The notes under the pieces are model-generated. The model was given only the letters and a program-made list of their open reading frames with translations. It did no database searches and was not told the DNA's origin. This document shows positions 1 through 47,837 of a stretch of DNA of 50,227 bases, piece after piece. This DNA is from a virus (taxonomy: Duplodnaviria > Heunggongvirae > Uroviricota > Caudoviricetes): IMG/VR virus record IMGVR_UViG_2529292913_000006; one strand, written 5' to 3'. Position 1 is the first letter of the stretch. Each line of letters opens with the position of its first letter. Made by a program: the position numbers and the translations under genes.

Positions 1-1143
1 CTATGCTGTTTTGATATCTACGATAATCCAGTCTTTACCACGATCATCATTGTATCGGTCGGTCATTTTTCTGGATTTATGGCCTAACAATTTTTGCGTA
101 TCCAGACCCTGTTCCCGATATAACCGTTCTGACAGAGATCGCTGCTCATGAAATGTGGGCGCAGTTCCTTGCTCCCATTTTATGCCACATTTTTCCCGGG
201 CCTTTTTAAAAGCCGTTGTCAGAGTATTTGCAGAAACCTGGTCTCCTCTGTTTGCTTGAGAGGTAGTGTGACGGTAATGGACCAGATATTTACTAACAAC
301 AGCATCCCTGCACTGAGATATAACTTCACGAAGGGTAATATTCAGAGCATCGCATTTCAGGTTAAGCGGAATAGCAAGTTTTGAACCGGTTTTTTCCTGA
401 GTAATGTGCAACATGTCGTCCCATATATCAGAGAATTTCAAATTGCAGATATCGCCTAAACGTTGTCCAGTAACAAGAGCAAGTAGCATGCCGCATTTTA
501 AATAGGGCTGCCGTCTGCTTACGCTTTCAAATATTGCCTGCCATTCGGGCAGTGACAATCTTTGGCGGTTTACTCGATTTCGCGGTTGTTTTGTTGCCTG
601 CGCTGGGTTAAATCCTGGCGGAACATGTCCTGCGTGTTGTGCTTCTTTGAAGACGTCGATCAACACCATTCTCACGACTTGCGCCATCCTGTTATGACCT
701 TCAGCCTTTACAGCATCAATTATTTCGGCAATATCAAGTGCGGTAATATCCTTGAGGTGTTGCATTCCACAATGCTCACGGAAAAGACGAATGGGTTTGC
801 CTTTTTGCCGATAGGAGTTGGGTCTTAGTTCATTATGTTGCAGCCTGTCCTCCTGGATAGAAATATATTTATCAAGCCATTCTGTCACCGTAATGTCTGA
901 GCGCCTGCCTTTCATTCTTTCCAGACGCTCATTGACGCTTAATATTTGTCGGGTACGTTGTTCAGCAATAATGGTATTTGCTTCAGTAGCAACTTGTTTT
1001 GCTTCATTCTCATCAGTTCCTAAGCTATGAAAACGACCGGATAGTGGATGTTTGTATTGCCAATATACCTTTCCGGTTCGCTTATCTAATTTGCAATATA
1101 AATTGGGTATAGAGATTTTGTGAGATCGGGGTCTAGCAGCCAT
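1..1143 (-). CDS. int: Phage tyrosine integrase (lambdoid, icd-targeting type)
   Basis: 380-aa ORF, ATG at 1143, stop at window edge; C-terminal tyrosine-recombinase motifs; xis immediately upstream; icd 3' fragment at the other prophage end. Confidence 0.9.
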   Translation of the reverse strand: MAARPRSHKISIPNLYCKLDKRTGKVYWQYKHPLSGRFHSLGTDENEAKQVATEANTIIAEQRTRQILSVNERLERMKGRRSDITVTEWLDKYISIQEDRLQHNELRPNSYRQKGKPIRLFREHCGMQHLKDITALDIAEIIDAVKAEGHNRMAQVVRMVLIDVFKEAQHAGHVPPGFNPAQATKQPRNRVNRQRLSLPEWQAIFESVSRRQPYLKCGMLLALVTGQRLGDICNLKFSDIWDDMLHITQEKTGSKLAIPLNLKCDALNITLREVISQCRDAVVSKYLVHYRHTTSQANRGDQVSANTLTTAFKKAREKCGIKWEQGTAPTFHEQRSLSERLYREQGLDTQKLLGHKSRKMTDRYNDDRGKDWIIVDIKTA

Positions 1144-34711: not shown

Positions 34712-37700
34712 ATGGGTAAAGGCAGCAGTAAGGGGCATACCCCGCGCGAAGCAAAGGACAACCTGAAGTCCACGCAGTTGCTGAGTGTGATCGATGCCAT
34801 CAGCGAAGGGCCGATTGAAGGTCCGGTGGATGGATTAAAAAGCGTGCTGCTGAACAGTACACCGGTGCTGGACAGTGAGAGGAATACTAACATCTCCGGT
34901 GTCACGGTGGTGTTCCGGGCAGGTGAGCAGGAACAGACACCGCCGGAGGGATTTGAATCATCAGGTTCCGAGACGGTACTGGGTACGGAAGTGAAATACG
35001 ACACGCCGATCACCCGGACCATCACGTCGGCAAACATTGACCGTCTGCGCTTTACCTTCGGTGTGCAGGCACTGGTGGAAACCACCTCAAAGGGGGACAG
35101 GAATCCGTCGGAAGTCCGCCTGCTGGTTCAGATACAACGTAACGGTGGCTGGGTGACGGAAAAAGACATCACCATTAAGGGCAAAACCACCTCGCAGTAT
35201 CTGGCCTCGGTAGTGGTGGATAATCTGCCGCCGCGCCCGTTCAACATCCGGATGCGCAGGATGACGCCGGACAGCACCACAGACCAGCTGCAGAACAAAA
35301 CGCTCTGGTCGTCATACACCGAAATCATCGATGTGAAACAGTGCTACCCGAACACGGCACTGGTCGGCGTACAGGTGGATTCGGAGCAGTTCGGCAGCCA
35401 GCAGGTGAGCCGTAATTATCATCTTCGCGGGCGTATTCTGCAGGTGCCGTCGAATTATAACCCGCAGACGCGGCAATACAGCGGTATCTGGGACGGAACG
35501 TTTAAACCGGCATACAGCAATAACATGGCCTGGTGTCTGTGGGATATGCTGACCCACCCGCGCTACGGCATGGGTAAACGTCTTGGTGCGGCAGATGTGG
35601 ATAAATGGGCGCTGTATGTCATCGGCCAGTGTTGCGACCAGTCGGTGCCGGACGGTTTTGGCGGCACGGAGCCGCGCATCACCTGTAATGCCTGGCTGAC
35701 CACACAGCGTAAGGCGTGGGATGTTCTCAGTGATTTCTGCTCGGCGATGCGCTGTATGCCGGTATGGAACGGGCAGACGCTGACGTTCGTGCAGGACCGA
35801 CCATCAGATAAGGTGTGGACCTATAACCGCAGTAATGTGGTGATGCCGGATGATGGCGCGCCGTTCCGCTACAGCTTCAGCGCCCTGAAGGACCGCCATA
35901 ATGCCGTTGAGGTGAACTGGATTGACCCGGATAACGGCTGGGAGACGGCGACAGAGCTTGTGGAGGACACGCAGGCCATTGCCCGTTACGGTCGTAACGT
36001 CACGAAGATGGATGCCTTTGGCTGTACCAGCCGGGGGCAGGCACACCGCGCCGGGCTGTGGCTGATTAAAACGGAACTGCTGGAAACGCAGACCGTGGAC
36101 TTCAGCGTGGGTGCCGAAGGGCTTCGCCATGTACCAGGTGATGTCATTGAAATCTGTGATGATGACTATGCGGGGATCAGCACCGGCGGGCGCGTGCTGG
36201 CGGTGAACAGCCAGACCCGGACGCTGACGCTCGACCGTGAAATCACGCTGCCATCCTCCGGTACCACGCTGATAAGCCTGGTTGACGGAAGTGGCAATCC
36301 GGTCAGCGTGGAGGTCCAGTCCGTCACCGACGGCGTGAAGGTAAAAGTGAGCCGTGTTCCTGACGGCGTTGCCGGATACAGCGTGTGGGGGCTGAAGCTG
36401 CCGACGCTGCGCCAGCGCCTGTTCCGCTGCGTGAGTATCCGTGAGAACGATGACGGTACGTATGCCATCACTGCCGTGCAGCATGTACCGGAAAAAGAAG
36501 CCATCGTGGATAACGGGGCGCACTTTGACGGCGACCAGAGCGACACGGTGAATGGTGTCACGCCGCCAGCAGTGCAGCACCTGACTGCCGAAGTCACCGC
36601 AGACAGTGGGGAGTATCAGGTACTGGCCCGCTGGGATACGCCGAAGGTGGTGAAGGGCGTGAGTTTCATGCTTCGCCTGACCGTGGCAGCGGATGACGGC
36701 AGTGAGCGGCTGGTCAGCACAGCCCGGACGGCGGAAACCACATACCGCTTCACACAACTGGCGCTGGGGAACTACAGGCTGACAGTCCGGGCAGTAAATG
36801 CGTGGGGGCAGCAGGGCGATCCGGCATCGGTATCGTTCCGGATTGCCGCACCGGCAGCGCCGTCGCAGATTGAGCTGACACCGGGGTATTTTCAGATAAC
36901 CGCCACGCCGCATCTTGCGGTTTATGATCCGACGGTACAGTTTGAGTTCTGGTTCTCGGAAACGCGGATTACCGATATCAGGCAGGTTGAAACCACAGCC
37001 CGCTACCTTGGCACGGGGCTGTACTGGATAGCCGCCAGTATCAATATCAAACCGGGCCATGATTATTACTTTTATATCCGCAGTGTGAACACCGTTGGCA
37101 AATCGGCATTCGTGGAGGCCGTCGGTCGGGCGAGCGATGATGCGGAAGGTTACCTGGATTTTTTCAAAGGCAAGATAACCGAATCCCATCTCGGTAAAGG
37201 GCTGCTGGAAAAAGTCGACCTGACGGAAGATAACGCCAGCAGACTGGATCAGTTTTCGAAAGAGTGGAAAGACGCCAACGATAAATGGAATGCCATGTGG
37301 GGCGTCAAAATTGAGCAGACCGAAGACGGTAAGCATTATGTCGCGGGACTTGGCCTCAGCATGGAGGATACAGAGGAAGGCAAACTGAGCCAGTTTCTGG
37401 TTGCCGCTAACCGTATCGCGTTTATTGACCCGGCAAACGGGAATGAAACGCCGATGTTTGTGGCGCAGGGCAACCAGATATTCATGAACGAAGTGTTCCT
37501 GAAACGCCTGACGGCCCCCACCATTACCAGTGGTGGAAATCCACCGGTATTTTCCCTGACACCGGACGGAAAGCTGACCGCTAAAAATGCGGATATCAGT
37601 GGCAGTGTGAATGCGAACTCCGGGACGCTCAACAACGTCACGATAAATGAAAACTGTACGATTAAGGGTATGCTGGAGGCGAATCAGGTCAGAGGTGATT

Positions 37701-38125
37701 TTGTTAAAACAGTATCCAAATCATTCCCGAAAAAGGCTGGTACGTGGGGTAACACGGAAACACCAGACGGGACGGTTACAGTCACCATCAGCGATGATCA
37801 TAACTTTGACCGTCAAATCATTATTCCGCCCATTATCTTTAACGGTATAGCGTATGACGATCCGGGAAGTGGTGATAACCCGGGAGGTACAAGGTACACG
37901 GGGTATGGTTTTGAAGTTCGCAAAAACGGCGTATTAATCGCATCCAGAGAAACTAAAGGGGCCATTCCCGGTAGTTACAGTGCGGTTATTGATATGCCGA
38001 GTGGCAGGGGAAGCGTCACTCTGGAGTTTAAGATTTTCCAGAAAGGCAATCAGGGGGCAGGCAATATCACCGACTGTACGGTGATTGTGACCAAAAAGGC
38101 TGCTTCCGGCATCAGTATTCGTTGA
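34712..38125 (+). CDS. J: Central tail fibre / host specificity protein J
   Basis: 1137 aa, lambda J-like over its length. Confidence 0.9.
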
Positions 38126-38195: not shown

Positions 38196-38795
38196 ATGCG
38201 TAAAGTTTGTGCAGCCATTTTGTCCGCAGCCATCTGTCTGGTCGTATCCGGTGCGCCTGCATGGGCGTCTGAACATCAGTCCACGCTGAGCGCGGGGTAT
38301 CTTCATGCCTCGACGAACGTTCCCGGCAGCGATGATCTTAACGGGATTAACGTGAAATACCGTTATGAGTTTACGGACACGCTGGGGATGGTGACGTCAT
38401 TCAGCTATGCAGAAGACAAGAATCGCCAGCTGACTCATTACAGCGATACCCGCTGGCATGAAGATTCCGTGCGTAACCGCTGGTTCAGCGTGATGGCGGG
38501 GCCGTCTGTGCGCGTGAATGAATGGTTCAGCGCGTATGCGATGGCGGGTGTGGCTTACAGCCGTATTTCGACTTTCTCCGGGGATTATCTCCGCGTAACT
38601 GACAACAAGGGGAAAACGCACGAAGTGCTGACCGGAAGTGATGACGGTCGCCGCAGCAACACGTCTCTGGCGTGGGGAGCTGGCGTGCAGTTTAACCCGA
38701 CCGAATCCGTGGCCATTGATGTCGCTTATGAAGGCTCCGGCAGTGGTGACTGGCGCACTGACGGGTTCATCGTGGGTGTTGGTTATAAATTCTGA
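38196..38795 (+). CDS. lom: Outer-membrane protein Lom (Ail/OmpX family moron)
   Basis: 199 aa with signal peptide and C-terminal aromatic residue (GVGYKF). Confidence 0.85.
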   Translation: MRKVCAAILSAAICLVVSGAPAWASEHQSTLSAGYLHASTNVPGSDDLNGINVKYRYEFTDTLGMVTSFSYAEDKNRQLTHYSDTRWHEDSVRNRWFSVMAGPSVRVNEWFSAYAMAGVAYSRISTFSGDYLRVTDNKGKTHEVLTGSDDGRRSNTSLAWGAGVQFNPTESVAIDVAYEGSGSGDWRTDGFIVGVGYKF

Positions 38796-38850: not shown

Positions 38851-38859
38851 GGGGTGAAT

Positions 38860-41800
38860 ATGGCAGTAAAAATTTCAGGTGTACTGAAAGACGGTGCAGG
38901 TAAACCGGTACAGAACTGCACAATCCAGCTGAAAGCAAAACGTAACAGCACCACGGTGGTGGTGAACACGGTGGCATCTGAAAATCCGGATGAAGCAGGG
39001 CGTTACAGCATGGACGTTGAGTACGGTCAGTACAGCGTTATTCTGTTGGTGGAAGGCTTCCCGCCATCGCATGCCGGGACCATCACCGTGTATGAAGATT
39101 CTCAACCCGGTACGCTGAATGATTTTCTCGGTGCCATGACGGAGGATGATGCCCGTCCGGAGGCACTGCGCCGCTTTGAACTGATGGTGGAAGAGGTGGC
39201 GCGTAACGCGTCCGCAGTGGCACAGGACACGGCAGCCGCGAAGAAGTCAGCCAGCGATGCCGGCACATCAGCCCGTGAGGCGGCAACCCATGCGACTGAT
39301 GCTACAGGCTCAGCACGCGCAGCCAGCACGTCAGCCGGACAGGCCGCGTCGTCGGCTCAGTCAGCGTCTTCCAGCGCAGGAACGGCATCAACAAAGGCTA
39401 CTGAAGCATCAAAAAGTGCTGCCGCTGCAGAGTCCTCAAAAAGCGCGGCGGCCACCAGTGCCGGTGCGGCGAAAACGTCAGAAACGAATGCGGCAGCGTC
39501 ACAACAATCAGCCGCCACTTCTGCATCCACCGCGACCACGAAAGCGTCAGAAGCTGCCACCTCAGCCCGGGATGCGGCGGCCTCAAAAGAGGCAGCGAAA
39601 TCATCAGAAACGAACGCATCATCAAGTGCCAGTAGTGCAGCTTCCTCGGCAACGGCGGCAGGAAATTCCGCGAAGGCCGCAAAAACGTCTGAGACGAATG
39701 CGGATAACAGCGCACAGGCGGCAGCGGCCTCACAAACTGCATCGGCAAACTCCGCGACAGCAGCCAAAAAATCAGAAACCAACGCGAAAAATAGCGAGGC
39801 AGCAGCAAAGAGCAGCGAAACAAACGCTAAAGCCAGCGAAACTAATGCTAAATCCAGTGAAACAAACGCGGCGAAATCTGCGGCGGACGCACTTAATTAT
39901 CGCAACCAGGCGCAAGTAATTGTTGGCGATAATATCGGTCTTGGCTCAGCCCCGCGTGATTGTCCTGATATTTCCGGCAACCCATCAGGGTATATCGGAT
40001 TTATGCGCATTATGAGTAATGCAAAAGGCTTTCCATCGATTGCATCCGGTGAAAGCAGTCTTACGGGGTTTATTAGTCAGGTAGATGGAACACCAGCGTA
40101 TACAGGTGTATTTCAGGGATGGGCTACGCGCTCGCTTTATACTTATCGCTGGAATCCGACAATAGGCCCGCAGTGGACGCGTCACGCAAGAAAAGATGCA
40201 GTGGACAGGCTTACTCAACTAACAGGTAATACACGCGTATATTGTCAAAATGCAAGCAAATTTTTTAGTATCTACGATTCAGGAACATGGGGTTATTACG
40301 ATGCAGAGAATAGCGAATGGATTCCGCTTTCGATCGCGGCCGGAGGTACTGGTGCGGCAACTATTGATGGTGCCAGAACGAATCTTGGCTTAGGTAGGAA
40401 CAACAGCCCTCAACTTAACAGTCTATTTCTTGATAGATATAGTGATTCGACCAATACATACACATCTAGTGGAATTCTCCATACAAGACTGTTAGCAACT
40501 GACAGCACTGTGCGTCTTGGTGCTGATATGTATGTTGAGACTTTATCAAATGAGCCAGGTCAATTAACAATAAGGTTTACATACGATGGTTCAACTGGTG
40601 CTTCAAAATATCTAAACCTTAACTCAGAAGGTAATTTAATTGTAGATAGTGCGATACTGAGATCAACGGTTGAAAAACCTTTACAAATAAGGAGCGCTAA
40701 CCCAGCAATAAGATTTAATGAAACAGATCGCCCGGCTAACACGCCTACTTATACTCTCATTGCTAATGCTGGCGACTGGTTTATTCAGAAACGCGATTAT
40801 GATGATGCCGGAAGCGTTAGTAACGCAATTGCATATAATTTCGCAAACGACAGAATTGATGTGCAAAATCTTAAAGCGTCTGGGTTAATTACAGCTAACT
40901 CAGGAATCGCAACATTAACAGGTCATGACTGGAACTCTCAGCATACTGATAACGTCGACAAATTTAGACCAATCGCAGGCAGTACAAACGGCCCGGCAGG
41001 CTCTATGGTTCTTGGCGGCATTCATGTTCAATTTAGTAAAAATTATGCTGTGCAGTTCGGAGGCCGCAATTCCGGTTTTTGGGGAAGAACAATTGAAAAT
41101 GGAACGACGCAGGAATGGAAGAAATTACTAACAGTAGACGATCTCAATTCATCTACCGATCTTGCTGTCAGGTCATTAACCACATCTAACCCGGTAAAAT
41201 CTGGCGGAGGGCGAATTGATGTCCTTGGAAGCACGTCAGACTATAGCAAAATGGATTGCTTTGTACGTGGGTTTGATAGCACCGGTAATTCTCTCGCGTG
41301 GGCGTTGGGTTCATCAGTCGGCGTAAGTAAGATGCTGTCGCTAAAAAATTTCTTTAGCGGAGCTGAGATACTGCTAAATGGTAATGACGGCGCGGTTCAA
41401 CTCAAAACAGGTGCTGTTAACGGGGCTAAAGCGCAGGCGCTCACTATCAACAAGGATGAGGTTAACTCAACTGTTGATTTAACTCTTACAAAACAAACAG
41501 GGACTGGAAATCGTTTTGTTTTACAGAACTTAGGTAATACAGAACTATCATTTGCCGCAAAAGTATGGGGATCAAGTGATCGACAAAACGTTTTTGAGGT
41601 TGGAACGTCTGCTGCGTATCTGTTTTATGCGCAAAAAACGTCAGCAGGCCAGTTGTTTGATGTAAATGGCGCTATTAATTGCACAACGCTGAATCAGTCA
41701 TCAGACCGCGACCTTAAAGACGATATTCTCGTTATCAGCGACGCGACGAAAGCAATCCGTAAAATGAACGGATACACCTACACGCTCAAGGAAAACGGGA

Positions 41801-42135
41801 TGCCTTATGCTGGCGTTATTGCACAGGAAGTAATGGAGGCGATACCAGAAGCTGTGGGATCGTTTACTCATTATGGTGAAGAGTTGCAAGGTCCGACCGT
41901 TGACGGCAACGAGCTACGCGAAGAAACTCGCTATCTTAATGTTGACTACTCCGCCGTGACGGGTTTACTTGTTCAGGTCGCCCGTGAAACAGATGATCGC
42001 GTTACCGCGCTGGAAGAGGAAAACACAACGCTACGTCAAAATCTGGCAACAGCAGGCACCCGGATCAGCACTCTGGAAAATCAGGTAAGCGAACTGGTTG
42101 CACTTGTCCGGCAGTTAACAGGAAGCGAACATTGA
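38860..42135 (+). CDS. stf: Side tail fibre: lambda Stf N-terminus fused to a distal region ending in an S74-type intramolecular chaperone domain
   Basis: ATG 38860 (MAVKISGVLKDGAGKPVQNCTIQLKAK...); Ala/Ser-rich SETNA repeats at about 39230-39900; C-terminal SDRDLKDDI... coiled-coil tail. Confidence 0.8.
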   Translation: MAVKISGVLKDGAGKPVQNCTIQLKAKRNSTTVVVNTVASENPDEAGRYSMDVEYGQYSVILLVEGFPPSHAGTITVYEDSQPGTLNDFLGAMTEDDARPEALRRFELMVEEVARNASAVAQDTAAAKKSASDAGTSAREAATHATDATGSARAASTSAGQAASSAQSASSSAGTASTKATEASKSAAAAESSKSAAATSAGAAKTSETNAAASQQSAATSASTATTKASEAATSARDAAASKEAAKSSETNASSSASSAASSATAAGNSAKAAKTSETNADNSAQAAAASQTASANSATAAKKSETNAKNSEAAAKSSETNAKASETNAKSSETNAAKSAADALNYRNQAQVIVGDNIGLGSAPRDCPDISGNPSGYIGFMRIMSNAKGFPSIASGESSLTGFISQVDGTPAYTGVFQGWATRSLYTYRWNPTIGPQWTRHARKDAVDRLTQLTGNTRVYCQNASKFFSIYDSGTWGYYDAENSEWIPLSIAAGGTGAATIDGARTNLGLGRNNSPQLNSLFLDRYSDSTNTYTSSGILHTRLLATDSTVRLGADMYVETLSNEPGQLTIRFTYDGSTGASKYLNLNSEGNLIVDSAILRSTVEKPLQIRSANPAIRFNETDRPANTPTYTLIANAGDWFIQKRDYDDAGSVSNAIAYNFANDRIDVQNLKASGLITANSGIATLTGHDWNSQHTDNVDKFRPIAGSTNGPAGSMVLGGIHVQFSKNYAVQFGGRNSGFWGRTIENGTTQEWKKLLTVDDLNSSTDLAVRSLTTSNPVKSGGGRIDVLGSTSDYSKMDCFVRGFDSTGNSLAWALGSSVGVSKMLSLKNFFSGAEILLNGNDGAVQLKTGAVNGAKAQALTINKDEVNSTVDLTLTKQTGTGNRFVLQNLGNTELSFAAKVWGSSDRQNVFEVGTSAAYLFYAQKTSAGQLFDVNGAINCTTLNQSSDRDLKDDILVISDATKAIRKMNGYTYTLKENGMPYAGVIAQEVMEAIPEAVGSFTHYGEELQGPTVDGNELREETRYLNVDYSAVTGLLVQVARETDDRVTALEEENTTLRQNLATAGTRISTLENQVSELVALVRQLTGSEH

Positions 42136-42174
42136 TATCCTTCAAGCCCTGAAGGAGGCTGTTCCTGGTACGTT

Positions 42175-42306
42175 CAGACTGTTGCTGAGCTGGAGATCGC
42201 AACGGAGGAAGAGAAAGCGTTTCTGGCCGCATGGAAAACATATCGGGTATTGCTGAACCGTGTTGATACAGTAAACCCCGTCTGGCCTCCACCTTCGAAG
42301 CGATAG
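42175..42306 (+). pseudogene. tfa: Remnant 3' end of a tail fibre assembly gene
   Basis: Open frame ...[40 protein letters not shown] resembling Tfa C-termini; no start codon or 5' portion. Confidence 0.45.
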
Positions 42307-42610
42307 CCCAGCAACTCCTAAATAGCTGCGCATAATACCGCTACACCTGCCGTTTTACTGACATTTGGAATATTGCGTGAGGGCAACATATCGAGGGGCA
42401 GATACAGCTCGGTCAAATAGAAAAACAGCCCCACTATTTACCATGCAATAGCTGGTCAAAAGGAGAGCACTATTCCGCTCCGCGTAGTATTTTGTGTTTA
42501 TAGTGATAACTTAGGTAATGCTTAGTCACTAAGATACTTTGCTATTGGAGAGCGATTTATAATGTGGGCGCAACAGATTTTTACTATTGCGCCACTTGCT
42601 CTTGTGAGTA

Positions 42611-43699
42611 CTATTCGCTATAAGTTAATGTTGGTTTTGAAAGTCTTTTGGATATTGTTTTTCCGATATTAATGAATGGAGTTTCAATATATTTATAAAT
42701 AAAGAATGATAAGAACAAGCTAAGAGCAATAATGAATGAAAACTTAGAGAACCCAGGTTTTTCATAAAGCGGAATGAAATCCTTAAAATTAATTAAAAAT
42801 AGCATTACTATCGCATGGGATAAATACAGAGAGTAAGAGATATCACCTAGCTTACTGAGTATTTTATTTTCCCTTAATCCGAAGTTAACTTCATAAAGTA
42901 AAACTCCCGTAATTATGGAGGCTGCCCACAATCCGAAGTTTAAAGGGCCATGACCAAATCTGAATTGATAAAAATATGAGCAAACACCAAATGAAACCAA
43001 AAGGAATGATATCGCCTTTGCGTTTTTTATATATTTAAATTTTCTGTGTATTATATACAGAAACATCCCATAAACGAATTCTAACAGCATGGGTGATGAC
43101 ATTAAGTTTAGAAAGCCAATATGCCAATGACCTGTATCACCAATCGTAAACTTACTTGATAGAGAAAGGCTGTTGGAAAATTTCAACTGTATGAGAAGTA
43201 GCGGGACTATCAATGCAATAACTGATATTAATAATCTGTTTTTATGACTCAGCGATATTGCAAGCATAAAAATGAAATAAAAATAGACTTCAAAGGTTAA
43301 TGTCCATGCTGGATAAAGCACGTTGTATCCGAAGAATGGCGCTTCTGAATAATAGTCCAGGTGAAGCAGAAACAATGAACGCAATAATTCACTTTCGGTG
43401 AAGACTGGGTTCAATAAAAAGAATAAGATTGTGCAAATGAAAAATACAGGGTAAATCCTGAAAAAACGCCTGGTCATAAAGTTAATAGGGGAATTTGTTT
43501 CTTTTTTTTGACTCGATAACATTATTATAAATCCACTTATAATAAAAAACAGATCAACCCCAAAACCACCACTAATAAACAATAAATCACCTAGATCTTT
43601 TTGTGCGTAAACTTCATTTAGGTATTGTTTATTGTGATATGCAACAACGAGTAATGCTGCTACACCTCGCAAATAGTGAATTGATTTTACCTTCTTCAT
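42611..43699 (-). CDS. Acyltransferase family 3 integral membrane protein (O-antigen/LPS acetyltransferase-like)
   Basis: 362 aa, about 10 predicted TM segments, conserved N-terminal region (YLRGVAALLVVAYH...FFIISGF); low GC; antisense. Confidence 0.8.
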   Translation of the reverse strand: MKKVKSIHYLRGVAALLVVAYHNKQYLNEVYAQKDLGDLLFISGGFGVDLFFIISGFIIMLSSQKKETNSPINFMTRRFFRIYPVFFICTILFFLLNPVFTESELLRSLFLLHLDYYSEAPFFGYNVLYPAWTLTFEVYFYFIFMLAISLSHKNRLLISVIALIVPLLLIQLKFSNSLSLSSKFTIGDTGHWHIGFLNLMSSPMLLEFVYGMFLYIIHRKFKYIKNAKAISFLLVSFGVCSYFYQFRFGHGPLNFGLWAASIITGVLLYEVNFGLRENKILSKLGDISYSLYLSHAIVMLFLINFKDFIPLYEKPGFSKFSFIIALSLFLSFFIYKYIETPFINIGKTISKRLSKPTLTYSE

Positions 43700-44169
43700 T
43701 TTTATATAATCACTGTTCCAATTTTTTTATTTTACAAACAATTCTATCTAGCTCATTAGTACTCAAAGTCAGATTGGTAGCAATAAAAAAACAAGATATG
43801 TGATGACATGGCGCGGGGCTCAGAACCACTCGTGTATTTTCGCCACTGGCTATGACTGGCTGCACCTGCAAGATCTGCCATTTGTGTGCCAGTATACCCA
43901 AGCTCTGACTTTATGTTTACCAGATCCTCTGGAGTGCCGGGGAGTATAATCGTTGATTAATCGAATCTGCAACTATTTCAGAACGACCTAGGTTAAAGTG
44001 CGCTCTGCAGTCTCTTATATAAGGTGATACTTTAATTGTCTGGAAACTGGACAGGTTAGGAAGGAGCAGGAAACATCTTATTATACTTACCGAGTAGCTG
44101 CGGGTAAGGGGGGGATTTCCGTAGCCTGACAGGTAACATTGACACGTCAACATCGATGGTTTTTTTTAT

Positions 44170-44412
44170 TTTTCCATGTGATGGAGCCCTGGTTGAAATG
44201 AAGCGTGAACTGATTGATGACTGAACAAAAGTTGGACTGGAAGATGCTCGCGCACAGGGAGGAATTGGTGGACGTCGTCCTAAACTTACATCAGAACAAT
44301 GGGCGCAGGCCGGGCGATTAATTGCATCAAAAGTCCCGCGTCAGAAGGTGGCGATCATCTATGATATTGGTGTATCGACTTTGTATAAGAGGTTTCCAGC
44401 CAGGATTATATA
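44170..44412 (+). pseudogene. pin: DNA invertase (Pin/Gin/Hin family) 3' remnant with frameshift
   Basis: Frames encode FFHVMEPWL..., MKRELIDD*, then LEDARAQGGIGGRRPKLTSEQWAQAGRLIASKVPRQKVAIIYDIGVSTLYKRFPAR, matching invertase C-terminal HTH; N-terminal catalytic domain absent. Confidence 0.7.
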
Positions 44413-44736
44413 AAACTGCAGACACGCCGTATGCAAGACGTGCTGCGGTTGGTTGATGCACTTTCGAGAGTGTATGTATTGAATAATTTCCAACCGTCAT
44501 TAATTTTATTTATTTTTTGCATGAGAGGATTTGAACCTCCGAGCCTCGACACCTTATGACAACGCGATATTCCCTTGATGACCGCTATGCGCCAAAATAA
44601 CCAATTGATAAATAAGTTGATTTTAATTGGTTGGAAGCAAGTCAGGTCAAATTCAGCATGCCGCTCTCTGTATCGGGTAGTTAAATTTTTCTATAACTGA
44701 TAGTAATATGTTAAAACTCACACAGATAAATTATCA

Positions 44737-46719
44737 TTGCTCAACAAGTATAATGGAGTTCCCGTGGATACAGCAGAACATGATGGCAAATTTGCTTGGG
44801 CTAGTTTTTATGAGGCTTTTGCCAACGCGTTACTGACTTGGCGAAATCGTAGAGATGAATTAGTCAAAGGTATTCATCTAATTGCCTCAGGTGTGGAAGG
44901 AATGTCCCATCTGCAGGACAAATCTATTATGGGAGAGATCTTTCCCTTAAAAGACATTTGTCCGTTTACTACTATGGGCTTGTTCAATCGTAACTTGACC
45001 GACAGCAATCGCAAAATTATTGCTGCCAAGCTAGCGAATTTGTTGGGCGTGAACGAACCGATTCCTGACTCCTTTGCCGGAATCCCGCTGTTGAATAACC
45101 AAAAATCTTGGTTCTTTGGTTATGAAAAGTCACGCGACCCTAATGACATTGAATGCTTGTGGGAAATGTTCTCGCAGGCAATGACCTTTGCGGATAACCA
45201 GAATACTAACTCTGCAGACTTCACTGCCGCATATGACATCGCTTCTACAGTAATGAATGTCGGTTGGAATCTCACCATGGGGTTGTACTGGACCCGTCCT
45301 TGGTTCTACCCTACTTTAGATAGCCAGTCGCAGTATTACATTCAGACAGTGTTAAACATTAAGATCATTAAAAACGGGGCAAAAGGTCGCTGTAGTGGAC
45401 AAAGTTACCTGAGTCTTATGCGGGCGCTGAACGAGGTCTTTACCCAACCAAACTATCCGGTTCATTCTTTCCCAGAACTTTCTTTATCAGCGTGGAATAC
45501 AGATCTTAGCCAGTCTAAAGATGAGGTGGCAAATAGAACGTGGAAAGCCTCTTTACTGAATAAAATTAAGGCGTTATGCCTGAAAAAAAATGGCCCTTAT
45601 TTCACTGCTTCGGAGTTGGAAGAAAACTACTTGGACGTATTCAAGGTAGAGCATCCTGAGAGCAAAACAGTTACAAGCTCAATCTACTTTTATCTACAGA
45701 AACTATGCAATGATGATGAGTTAAAGTCCCTTGAGTCCGGAAATTATGAATACCTGAATTTTGAGAAAAACGAATCCCAGACGATAACTGAGGAAACTGT
45801 CGAAGAGAGTGCGCCGTTGCCAAAACTCACTCACGTTCCTTATGACATCAGTCATCTGGTGCAGGATGGCTGTTTCTTGGAAGAGGCTAAGATCCAACTC
45901 ACACTTCAGCGCCTGATCGACAAGAAAAACCTGATATTACAAGGACCACCCGGAACTGGAAAAACCTGGTTAGCGCGACGTCTGGCGTACTGCTTGATGG
46001 GAGAAAAAGCACCTGAGCGTATTAGCGCGGTGCAATTTCACCCGAACCTCTCTTACGAAGACTTTATTCGCGGCTGGCGTCCAGGTAAAGAAGGGCAATT
46101 GACGCTAATTGATGGACCTTTTGTAAATGCAATCAAAACTGCAGTCAATAATCCTACCTCGAAATATGTGGTGATAATTGAAGAGATTAATCGTGGCAAT
46201 CCGGCGCAAATCTTCGGTGAAACACTCACGTTGATGGAAGCAGATAAACGCACGCCGACTGAGGCATTATCTCTTTCCTATCCTAAAAATGATGATGAAA
46301 AAATATACATTCCTGAGAATCTATATATCATCGGTACGATGAATATTGCAGACCGCTCACTCGCACTACTTGACCTAGCGCTGCGCCGTCGTTTCGCGTT
46401 TATCGATCTAAAGCCAGCTTTTAATGACGCGTGGAGAAACTGGGTAAATTATAATTACGCAATTGATTTTGACATGTTAGCATTCATCAAATCTCGACTG
46501 ACGGTACTTAACGATATGCTGGCAAAAGATGTTACCTTAGGACCACAGTTTTGTATCGGTCACAGCTATGTCACCCCAGCTATCGGCCAAAAAATCAACG
46601 ATGCCCAGGCTTGGTATGAACAAGTCGTTGATACAGAGATCTGCCCTTTGCTCGCCGAATATTGGTTCGATGCTCCAAATAAAGTCGATGAAGCCAGAAA
46701 AGTGTTATTAGCAAAATGA
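44737..46719 (+). CDS. McrB-like AAA+ GTPase with a long uncharacterised N-terminal domain
   Basis: Walker A GPPGTGKT, Walker B VVIIEEINRGN, McrB-type MNIADRS motif, RRRF arginine finger; about 390 aa of non-canonical N-terminus; start uncertain (track TTG 44737; GTG 44764 has a GGAG SD). Confidence 0.8.
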   Translation: MLNKYNGVPVDTAEHDGKFAWASFYEAFANALLTWRNRRDELVKGIHLIASGVEGMSHLQDKSIMGEIFPLKDICPFTTMGLFNRNLTDSNRKIIAAKLANLLGVNEPIPDSFAGIPLLNNQKSWFFGYEKSRDPNDIECLWEMFSQAMTFADNQNTNSADFTAAYDIASTVMNVGWNLTMGLYWTRPWFYPTLDSQSQYYIQTVLNIKIIKNGAKGRCSGQSYLSLMRALNEVFTQPNYPVHSFPELSLSAWNTDLSQSKDEVANRTWKASLLNKIKALCLKKNGPYFTASELEENYLDVFKVEHPESKTVTSSIYFYLQKLCNDDELKSLESGNYEYLNFEKNESQTITEETVEESAPLPKLTHVPYDISHLVQDGCFLEEAKIQLTLQRLIDKKNLILQGPPGTGKTWLARRLAYCLMGEKAPERISAVQFHPNLSYEDFIRGWRPGKEGQLTLIDGPFVNAIKTAVNNPTSKYVVIIEEINRGNPAQIFGETLTLMEADKRTPTEALSLSYPKNDDEKIYIPENLYIIGTMNIADRSLALLDLALRRRFAFIDLKPAFNDAWRNWVNYNYAIDFDMLAFIKSRLTVLNDMLAKDVTLGPQFCIGHSYVTPAIGQKINDAQAWYEQVVDTEICPLLAEYWFDAPNKVDEARKVLLAK

Positions 46720-47837
46720 CGACAATAACCGGGAGTGAGCAACATACAGCATCACGTATTCCCATGCGAAATATCTGGATGCTGATGCTGTACGCTTCAG
46801 ATCTGTTTCGTCAGTTAGGGCGCAATCAGATCGCAGTAGAAGATAACCCAGCAGAAATCCCCGACCTGGTGGCGACAATCCTCCTTCATGAGATTACGCT
46901 GCGCCGACGTCGCAATTTAAATATGGGATACCAAACTTGTCATGCGGCCCTGAACCGGGTGAGAGGGCGCATTGACATACTGTATACTGCCAGTCATCAA
47001 CTACTGGAACGGGGACAGGTTGCCTGCCATTTTCAAGACATAACCCTCAACACCCCCCGAAATCGCTATGTTCGCTGTGCGTTAGAACGTCTGGCCTCAA
47101 TCATAGTGAAACCGTCTTTGGCGGCAGATTGCCATTTTATGGCAATATCACTTCGCCGTGAGGGGATAAATGGAGGATATCCTGCCCCCCACGAATTACC
47201 CTCAGTGTGGCGTTTTGGACGCCATGATGCCGCAGATAAACCGATGGTCGATGCCGCACGATTAGCTTTTGAACTGCTGATGCCGACCGAAGATCAAGGC
47301 CAATATCTTTTACCTGCGCCCTCAAATAACCTTTACTGGATGAGAAGACTATTTGAAAAAGGTATCGCTGGCTTATATCGTGTACACCTTGCCAAAACAA
47401 CTTGGCAGGTCTCTGCAGGGAAAGAGCTGAAATGGGCGTTGAGCGATCAAAGTGCAGGTAGTGCAGAGATTTTCCCGACAATGAAGTCAGACATTATTCT
47501 GGAACACAAGACTGCCCAGCGGCGTATTATTATCGATACCAAATTTAATTCGATTCTGACAAAGGGTTGGCATCGGGAGCAATCACTACGTAATGGCTAT
47601 ATTTATCAGCTATATACCTACCTTAGAACACAGGAGAACAAGACGGATCCGCTTTCGCTCAATGCCGCTGGTCTTCTACTTCATCCAGCTGTTGGCTATA
47701 TGCTTAATGAGTATGTTGTCACTCAGGGACATAAGATCCATTTTGCTACAGTAGATATGACGGTAGATGCTAAAGCAATTAAAAAACAATTGCTGGCAAT
47801 AGCCCATGATTGTGCAGGAGTCGCGGTTGATGACTAA
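46716..47837 (+). CDS. McrC-like PD-(D/E)xK nuclease partner
   Basis: 373 aa; ATGA overlap with upstream gene; candidate catalytic motif SDIILEH...IIIDTKF. Confidence 0.7.
   Translation: MTTITGSEQHTASRIPMRNIWMLMLYASDLFRQLGRNQIAVEDNPAEIPDLVATILLHEITLRRRRNLNMGYQTCHAALNRVRGRIDILYTASHQLLERGQVACHFQDITLNTPRNRYVRCALERLASIIVKPSLAADCHFMAISLRREGINGGYPAPHELPSVWRFGRHDAADKPMVDAARLAFELLMPTEDQGQYLLPAPSNNLYWMRRLFEKGIAGLYRVHLAKTTWQVSAGKELKWALSDQSAGSAEIFPTMKSDIILEHKTAQRRIIIDTKFNSILTKGWHREQSLRNGYIYQLYTYLRTQENKTDPLSLNAAGLLLHPAVGYMLNEYVVTQGHKIHFATVDMTVDAKAIKKQLLAIAHDCAGVAVDD

Follow-up and report, generated by a model that had tools for sequence, protein, structure and literature searches.

A lambdoid side tail fibre gene with a T5-like, S74-terminated distal part and a remnant of the chaperone gene tfa behind it

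The C-terminal chaperone of the K1F endosialidase is the founder of family S74 in MEROPS and Pfam, a self-cleaving trimerisation chaperone. The fold of these intramolecular chaperones comprises an alpha/beta part, beta-hairpin 'tentacles' and a helical bundle. The L-shaped tail fibre protein pb1 of phage T5 (PMC4690869), like that of slur09, ends in such an S74 domain, with serine and lysine at positions i and i+5 and then a coiled coil, and no chaperone gene comes after it. In T5 pb1 the Thr1263-Ser1264 bond is cut, Lys1269 activates Ser1264, and an S1264A protein remains uncleaved (PMC4690869). The classical side tail fibre (Stf) of lambdoid phages ends in Phage_fiber_2 repeats and a Collar domain, as seen in PhiR68_2, and needs a separate chaperone, the 194-residue Tfa. 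In ur-lambda the genes concerned are orf-401, orf-314 and orf-194, in the locus order J, lom, stf, tfa, and in PhiR68_2 Stf is followed by a Tfa of 191 residues. According to PMC9608196, which summarises North et al. 2019, Tfa is modular: its N-terminal domain is variable and binds the fibre, and its C-terminal helical domain is conserved. Engineered chimeras, in which the N-terminus of lambda Stf carries the S74-terminated receptor-binding protein of K1F, are functional (Brodel et al. 2024, PMC11338833). Here, we describe a natural chimera of this sort, encoded by the stf gene of a lambda-like E. coli prophage in the IMG/VR virus record IMGVR_UViG_2529292913_000006, a stretch of 50,227 nucleotides that is called the window below. 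The fibre carries the lambda Stf anchor at its N-terminus and an S74 domain at its C-terminus, and its gene is followed by 33 leftover codons of tfa.

J and lom lie directly upstream of stf, and the locus thus occupies the lambda J-lom-stf-tfa position, in a prophage with a lambda-type integrase gene at the left end of the window (1-1143, minus strand). Its parts are as follows.

34712-38125, plus strand: J, an intact open reading frame (ORF) of 1137 codons with GpJ domains
38196-38795, plus strand: lom, encoding an Ail/Lom outer-membrane protein (Pfam Ail_Lom, E 9e-124)
38860-42135, plus strand: stf, the chimeric side tail fibre gene, with its TGA stop codon at 42133-42135 (ORF list and Pfam)
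38860-39261, plus strand: lambda Stf-type N-terminal anchor, residues 1-134 (Pfam phage_tail_N)
39361-39915, plus strand: Ala/Ser-rich region with seven SETNA motifs, residues ~168-352 (motif count)
39916-41700, plus strand: distal shaft and presumed receptor-binding part, residues 353-947 (low guanine-plus-cytosine (GC) content, 0.43-0.44, and pb1 homology)
41701-42132, plus strand: S74 intramolecular chaperone, the predicted released fragment of 144 residues, residues 948-1091 (Pfam and dyad alignment)
42136-42172, plus strand: spacer of 37 nucleotides, always linked to the S74 end
42172-42270, plus strand: tfa remnant of 33 codons, 99 nucleotides (Caudo_TAP and tblastn)

Counted from the ATG at 38860, Stf has 1091 residues (a GTG at 38854 is an alternative start). 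Downstream of J and lom, its first 134 residues match the phage_tail_N model (PF08400) over the whole length of the model, positions 1-134 of 134 (Pfam, E 1.2e-71). SETNA occurs at residues 207, 249, 277, 305, 319, 326 and 333, and a 21-nucleotide tandem repeat lies inside the gene at 39813-39869. The Phage_fiber_2 repeats and the Collar domain of the classical distal end, which Pfam finds in the PhiR68_2 Stf, are absent. Stf ends differently: Peptidase_S74 (PF13884) matches residues 948-999 (E 4.5e-13; 49.7 bits against a Pfam cut-off of 22), in a domain that begins 144 residues before the C-terminus and is followed by a coiled-coil helix at residues ~1040-1091, with a weak coiled-coil-type Pfam match at residues 1048-1089.

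The domain contains the motif N-Q-S947-S948-D-R-D-L-K953-DDI, in which Ser948 is encoded at 41701-41703 and Lys953 at 41716-41718. When the last 197 residues of T5 pb1 (gene ltf) were aligned with the C-terminus of Stf and with four phage fibres (slur09, HannyBb, Henu8 and chee130_1), Ser948, Asp949, Leu952 and Lys953 were invariant, and Ser948 and Lys953 fell on Ser1264 and Lys1269 of T5 pb1, with the i, i+5 spacing of the S74 dyad. The catalytic residues are also invariant in alignments of 22 and 26 sequences made from database homologues. A profile of the six C-termini, compared with solved structures, matches gp37 of phage S16 (6F45, E 9e-10, motif SSDRRIK) and also the auto-processing domain of MYRF (7DC3, E 1.2e-4); T5 pb1 (4UW8) and K1F (3GW6) were not reached directly by phmmer and profile searches of PDB sequences. 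Among related loci the 144-codon S74 fragment is under purifying selection: in the more diverged pairs, most ratios of nonsynonymous to synonymous divergence (dN/dS) lie at 0.07-0.25, with synonymous divergence (dS) of up to ~0.45-0.49. At the level of sequence, the window Stf is an S74 intramolecular-chaperone fibre. An earlier note on this DNA, made from its letters, had recognised a lambda Stf-like N-terminus with SETNA repeats and an S74-type C-terminal domain; the full-length anchor, the seven SETNA motifs and the above-threshold S74 match with its coiled coil bear this out, and the Ser-Lys dyad that it had suggested looking for is present.

From where did the distal part of the fibre come? 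Homology to the pb1 of the T5-like phage slur09 begins only at residue ~168 and covers both shaft and distal parts (residues 168-513, 55% identity, E 3e-100; residues 675-1072, 65%, E 2e-164). In DNA, 39933-40207 is 86% and 40939-42015 is 68% identical to slur09, and T5 ltf is 81.7% identical at 39586-39831, within the Ala/Ser repeat region. DNA is shared with classical lambdoid stf genes up to 39701 only (95% identity to PhiR68_2; 87.5% to lambda orf-401, over the first 840 nucleotides of stf), and at the protein level the PhiR68_2 Stf is 79% identical over residues 1-351. The window Stf has no T5-type collar-attachment N-terminus: residues 1-167 are the lambda Stf anchor and the gene lies in a temperate lambdoid J-lom-stf locus, whereas T5 pb1 carries the collar-binding N-terminus of its own phage. 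Judged from these alignments, only the first ~167 residues of Stf are specifically lambda-type and the rest is pb1-like. The anchor has a GC content of 0.58; further along stf, in its middle and distal parts, the value drops to 0.43-0.44. Since the distal part is homologous to T5-like pb1 and lower in GC, a recombinational swap is the natural reading. A swap of the receptor-binding end had been proposed in the earlier note; the exchange itself is supported, and it is wider than supposed, at the protein level taking in residues 168-513 as well as 675-1072. The Ala/Ser SETNA-repeat region occurs in both families, classical lambdoid Stf as well as T5-family pb1, and could plausibly have served as the left-hand homology arm. 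Further along, a hypervariable block occupies ~40002-40917 of distal stf, where homology to mEp460 and FREC5 is lost (40002/40212-40917). No sialidase or depolymerase domain was detected in the window Stf. As a separate observation, residues ~905-947 (~41570-41700; VWGS-SDRQNVFEVG...FYAQ...VNG) match a repeated domain of T4 gp34, the proximal long tail fibre (PDB 4UXE/5NXF, E ~2e-6).

Behind the swapped end lies what is left of tfa. The ORF 42136-42306 runs on in frame with stf, with one TGA between the two, and contains no ATG, GTG or TTG. It matches Caudo_TAP over positions 87-127 of 131 only (E 2.7e-11; 44.2 bits, Pfam cut-off 22.1) and also several PHROG tail-fibre-assembly families; NCBIfam gave no match for it or for Stf. 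With intact Tfa as tblastn query, 42172-42270 corresponds to residues 147-179 of lambda and PhiR68_2 Tfa. Its DNA is 79.6% identical to nucleotides 440-537 of lambda tfa and 83.5% identical to PhiR68_2 tfa, tfaQ and tfaR, so that it aligns with the 3′ end of tfa from lambda, Rac, Qin and PhiR68_2. The last 36 nucleotides of the frame, 42271-42306, are not tfa-derived. The startless Tfa-like frame of the earlier note is thereby upheld and its coordinates, 42175-42306, are essentially exact. The remnant, or stub, is cut short at both ends: it has neither a start codon nor the N-terminal fibre-binding domain, and intact tfa occurs nowhere in the window. Given that, according to PMC9608196, the C-terminal domain of Tfa is conserved and the N-terminal one fibre-specific, the stub comes from the universal domain and the loss concerns the fibre-specific one. 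The piece is a non-coding scar of the conserved C-terminal (trimerisation-helix) domain and not a chaperone gene. In the closely related locus of E. coli CV839-06, the Prokaryotic Genome Annotation Pipeline (PGAP) likewise treats the stub as a pseudogene of tfa, 'missing N-terminus'.

The spacer between stf and the stub contains a Shine-Dalgarno-like AAGGAGG at 42152-42158, 14 nucleotides before the junction, with no usable start behind it. A hidden start of the stub was considered and rejected: the sole CTG after AAGGAGG (42165-42167) lies in another reading frame, and the other spacer variant lacks it. Similarity of the spacer was sought in tfa and in the sequence after the S74 fibre genes of slur09, Henu8 and HannyBb, and none was found. 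Searches in and around the stub gave no terminator-like site (41900-44800), no Rfam family and no tRNA. The stub tail of the window type (GTTGATACAGTAAACCCCGTCTGG) has no exact match among GTDB species representatives.

How widespread is this arrangement? In E. coli CV839-06 the locus is 99.8% identical over 5.9 kb, and its Stf is named by RefSeq/PGAP 'prophage tail fiber N-terminal domain and S74 family endopeptidase-containing protein'. In the annotation of that otherwise 99.8%-identical prophage, J is a pseudogene interrupted by a stop codon (L001 1-3026), whereas J is intact in the window. A probe of 281 nucleotides (41990-42270, that is, the end of stf, the spacer and the stub), counted at a coverage of at least 80%, finds the junction in 803 of 5426 complete E. 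coli genomes (~15%). The isolated, plaque-forming phages mEp460 and PhiR70_1 carry the same order of S74-type stf, spacer and stub. The mEp460 Stf (AFM76057) and a RefSeq family (e.g. WP_000268788.1) share the architecture of the window Stf and the same stop, spacer and stub junction; mEp460 differs in having another central block (1202 residues in all) and a complete 3′ end of the stub (Tfa residues 147-191), with dinI and int after it. The remodelling that the earlier note had seen is therefore real but not specific to this prophage: it appears to be an old, single ancestral event in a spreading cassette.

Comparison with related stf-tfa loci, as that note had advised, makes the homology breakpoints exactly visible. 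The sequence after the stf stop could be read in 57 loci, obtained from two exact-match IMG/VR scans, the fetched loci and the window, and all 57 have the same spacer (in four point variants) and the same stub start. The stf stop is TGA in 56 of them and TAA in one; one stub is frameshifted, and in 55 the stub frame stays open as far as the stop codon of tfa itself or a similar one. Where the data on tfa were usable, in 56 S74 loci counting the window, the gene is intact in none. An IMG/VR scan with a 17-mer from the spacer returned 53 loci, comprising 50 stub junctions, one stf deletion and two unrelated sequences. The shared frame of stf and stub was probably inherited from the single junction event and not selected. 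In loci gathered by exact 17-22-mers, nucleotide diversity is 0.10-0.26 upstream of 41920, 0.01-0.045 across 41956-42200 and 0.08-0.14 in the right part of the stub; the low-diversity island begins ~180 nucleotides before the end of stf, spans the spacer and ends in the left part of the stub. There are ~40 stub peptide variants, in which the allele of the 3′ tail (e.g. ...WPAVPVME, as in intact lambda tfa, ...WPALP, ...EEPDTM or ...NPVRE) follows 12 clusters of downstream context, and the spacer and middle alleles are shuffled. One junction, one island and a mosaic of tail alleles together point to a single origin, fairly recent relative to the flanking alleles, and to later spread by crossovers inside the stub. 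The 3′ half of the stub would thus mark sites of right-hand homologous crossovers, and in experiments lambda and Rac have yielded recombinants whose right crossover fell within tfa (PMC3945230).

On these grounds it is quite likely that the fibre, lambda-anchored and otherwise pb1-like, is folded by an S74 chaperone of its own, which is then shed through autocleavage at the Ser948-Lys953 dyad, and that the replacement by which the cassette came in also removed tfa, except for its conserved 3′ end, which was left behind as a crossover site. The process can be outlined as follows: residues 1-134, or up to 167, would attach the fibre to the tail tip, followed by the SETNA-repeat shaft and the pb1-like part. 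Three C-terminal domains would trimerise through the coiled coil and template the folding of the distal fibre, as in T5 pb1 and the K1F endosialidase. The dyad would then cut between Ser947 and Ser948 and free the fragment of 144 residues, so that a separate Tfa should not be needed. Redundancy of Tfa is suggested by the biology of S74 chaperones, by the lack of an intact tfa in the 56 loci and by the purifying selection on the S74 fragment; the occurrence of the arrangement in mEp460 and PhiR70_1 and the functional lambda-Stf/K1F fusions also speak for it. As to the history of the locus, the junction of S74 end, 37-nucleotide spacer and stub would have formed once. The cassette would then have spread over many lambdoid backbones, with left crossovers in the 5′ or repeat region of stf and right ones within the stub; here, the last 12 codons of the stub would have given way later to an insertion bearing an acyltransferase gene.

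Several points weigh against this account. Cleavage and Tfa-independent assembly are predictions, and T5 pb1 itself is only 25% identical to the window Stf in the chaperone region, an identity at which the Arg/Asp folding sensor of T5 pb1 is unmappable. AlphaFold2 monomer runs on residues 745-1091 and 940-1091, with the 22- and 26-sequence alignments as inputs, gave a poor mean predicted local distance difference test (pLDDT) of 50 and 58, and only the long C-terminal helix is confident (pLDDT 88-95). As lambda forms plaques without Stf (PMC3945230), the presence of the gene in viable phages is no proof that the fibre assembles. The diversity of the island is biased downward because its loci were gathered by exact matches inside it, with ~150 nucleotides around the seeds unaffected. 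Finally, the account offers no source for the spacer and its AAGGAGG.

The spacer is the starting point of one alternative, in which an S74-type stf originally had an intact tfa behind it, equipped with a ribosome-binding site, codons 1 to ~146 of tfa were deleted later, and the spacer is the old stf-tfa intergenic region. A strong Shine-Dalgarno-like sequence with nothing to translate would fit such a history, as would the tfa stubs truncated elsewhere at residues 132, 137, 156 and 162, which indicate recurrent truncation of tfa. However, none of the 53 loci of the 17-mer scan carries the spacer together with an intact tfa, no intermediate was seen, and the T5-family phages, as donors, have no tfa or other chaperone gene after pb1; we regard this two-step course as rather improbable. 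It is also conceivable that the stub is still functional, either as a C-terminal extension made by read-through of the TGA or as a regulatory or terminator element, and is kept by selection. Only one stop codon separates it from stf, whose frame it shares, its frame is intact in 55 of 57 loci, and the junction region is of very low diversity. Yet all copies descend from one junction, which deprives the conserved frame of independent weight, and repeated copying from intact tfa alleles would explain it as well. One locus has TAA for TGA and another is frameshifted, an extension would be discarded with the released S74 fragment, searches for terminator-like sites and Rfam families gave nothing, and the native C-terminus has been lost in the window. 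A retained function of the stub is accordingly very unlikely.

Equally little speaks for stf being a decaying relic of a defective prophage, in which tfa would have been lost by general erosion rather than by redundancy. Lambda-type phages do tolerate the loss of Stf (PMC3945230), stf is broken by insertion sequence (IS) elements or frameshifts in some relatives, and J is a pseudogene in CV839-06. The window, however, has an uninterrupted stf of 1091 codons and an intact J, the S74 fragment shows purifying selection up to dS ~0.45 with invariant catalytic residues, and the isolated phages mEp460 and PhiR70_1 have the same arrangement.

What does the S74-terminated fibre with its tfa scar add to existing knowledge? 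S74 self-chaperoning fibres, mosaic tail-fibre genes and engineered lambda-Stf/K1F fusions are already established, and both features of the locus are labelled in RefSeq. In the body of literature that was searched, there is no description of an S74-type lambdoid Stf with tfa remnants, or of the stub as a crossover site. The stub as a scar of the S74 fibre and a site of crossovers is a modest addition, the arrangement itself being ordinary and widespread, and no new mechanism is revealed. It provides a natural example of how a temperate phage may change its host-recognition hardware by grafting a virulent-phage fibre that brings its own chaperone, the dedicated chaperone gene being lost at the same time, and the leftover end of tfa marks later exchanges and cargo insertions. 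For annotation, a short 'tfa' fragment after an S74 fibre should be taken as a scar, not a missed gene; for design, chimeric lambda-type fibres might be made without a helper chaperone.

Stubs of the tfa 3′ end are found in other settings as well. The other 5′ truncation points, at Tfa residues 132, 137, 156 and 162, lie elsewhere, and several truncation points in other places make such stubs a recurrent type of scar. Seven loci (L011, L012, L016, L028, L029, L045 and L046) have tandem stubs ~1 kb apart, one of Tfa residues 147-191 and one of 132/137-191. In the two annotated ones, L011 (6183-7366) and L012 (6183-8678), the tandem stubs flank a gene for a class I S-adenosylmethionine (SAM)-dependent methyltransferase; the other five, which are IMG/VR contigs that carry no annotation, show the same pair of stubs, and second stubs with unannotated flanks also occur in L056 and L063. 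These double stubs suggest that cargo was inserted through recombination at the 3′ end of tfa. HannyBb (L008 3970-5464) and PhiR47_1 (L009) have a separate S74-terminated fibre of 343 residues followed by an ORF of ~99 codons, and an independent stub (Tfa residues 156-191) beside a DNA invertase gene is present in HannyBb only, not in PhiR47_1. In another IMG/VR contig (2908572912_000001, L043), lom (...DDLNGINVK) is joined straight to spacer and stub; the whole of stf is deleted and the stub is kept.

A broader idea may be put forward tentatively, and we think it somewhat doubtful: the tfa 3′ end could serve lambdoid tail operons generally as a docking site for recombination at their right end. 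It would persist as a stub after chaperone-independent cassettes replace stf-tfa, would let the cassette hop among at least 12 prophage backbones, and would receive cargo, an acyltransferase gene here and SAM-methyltransferase genes between two stubs elsewhere. In its strong version, the stub would be kept because of the exchange that it makes possible.

In the window itself, the right side of the stub has been altered by a further event, the features of which are as follows.

42271-44411: later insertion or replacement of 2.1 kb, including the non-tfa tail 42271-42306 of the open frame (homology to all other S74 loci stops at 42270 and resumes at 44412)
42611-43699, minus strand: acyltransferase gene, Acyl_transf_3, 362 residues, GC content 0.32 (Pfam, E 2.6e-34)
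~43966-44416, plus strand: remnant of a Pin/Hin-type serine recombinase gene (tblastn with Pin; PGAP pseudogene in CV839-06)
44412-44497, plus strand: conserved original right flank (blastn, 84.9% identity to L002 7557-7642 and L003 8230-8315)

In mEp460 and E. coli isolate 162 (NZ_OW849377) the counterpart of 44412-44497 directly follows a complete stub, and in these two and in PhiR70_1 the stub reaches the native tfa stop (residues 147-191). Since homology ends at 42270 and resumes at 44412, the cargo insertion has truncated the stub of the window once more, now on its 3′ side, and removed the last 12 tfa codons. The 2.1-kb segment is present in only 32 of 5426 complete E. coli genomes, and homology ends at 42270 in the window and 31 other genomes. 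The recombinase remnant is frameshifted and has internal stops; an intact invertase gene occupies this position in classical stf-tfa loci, e.g. in PhiR68_2 and HannyBb. With this remnant nearby, exchange by a Pin/Gin-type invertase was considered as the source of the stub junctions and set aside: the junctions lie in the tfa 3′ end, not at the boundary between constant and variable fibre parts, and the stub alleles fit homologous crossovers. The acyltransferase gene lies beside a fibre related to the O-antigen-binding pb1 of T5, a position that suggests a lysogenic-conversion gene that may modify surface polysaccharide. Directly after the tail-fibre region there is a McrBC-like pair (44737-47837, plus strand), consisting of an AAA_5 protein of 660 residues and a McrC-family protein of 373 residues.

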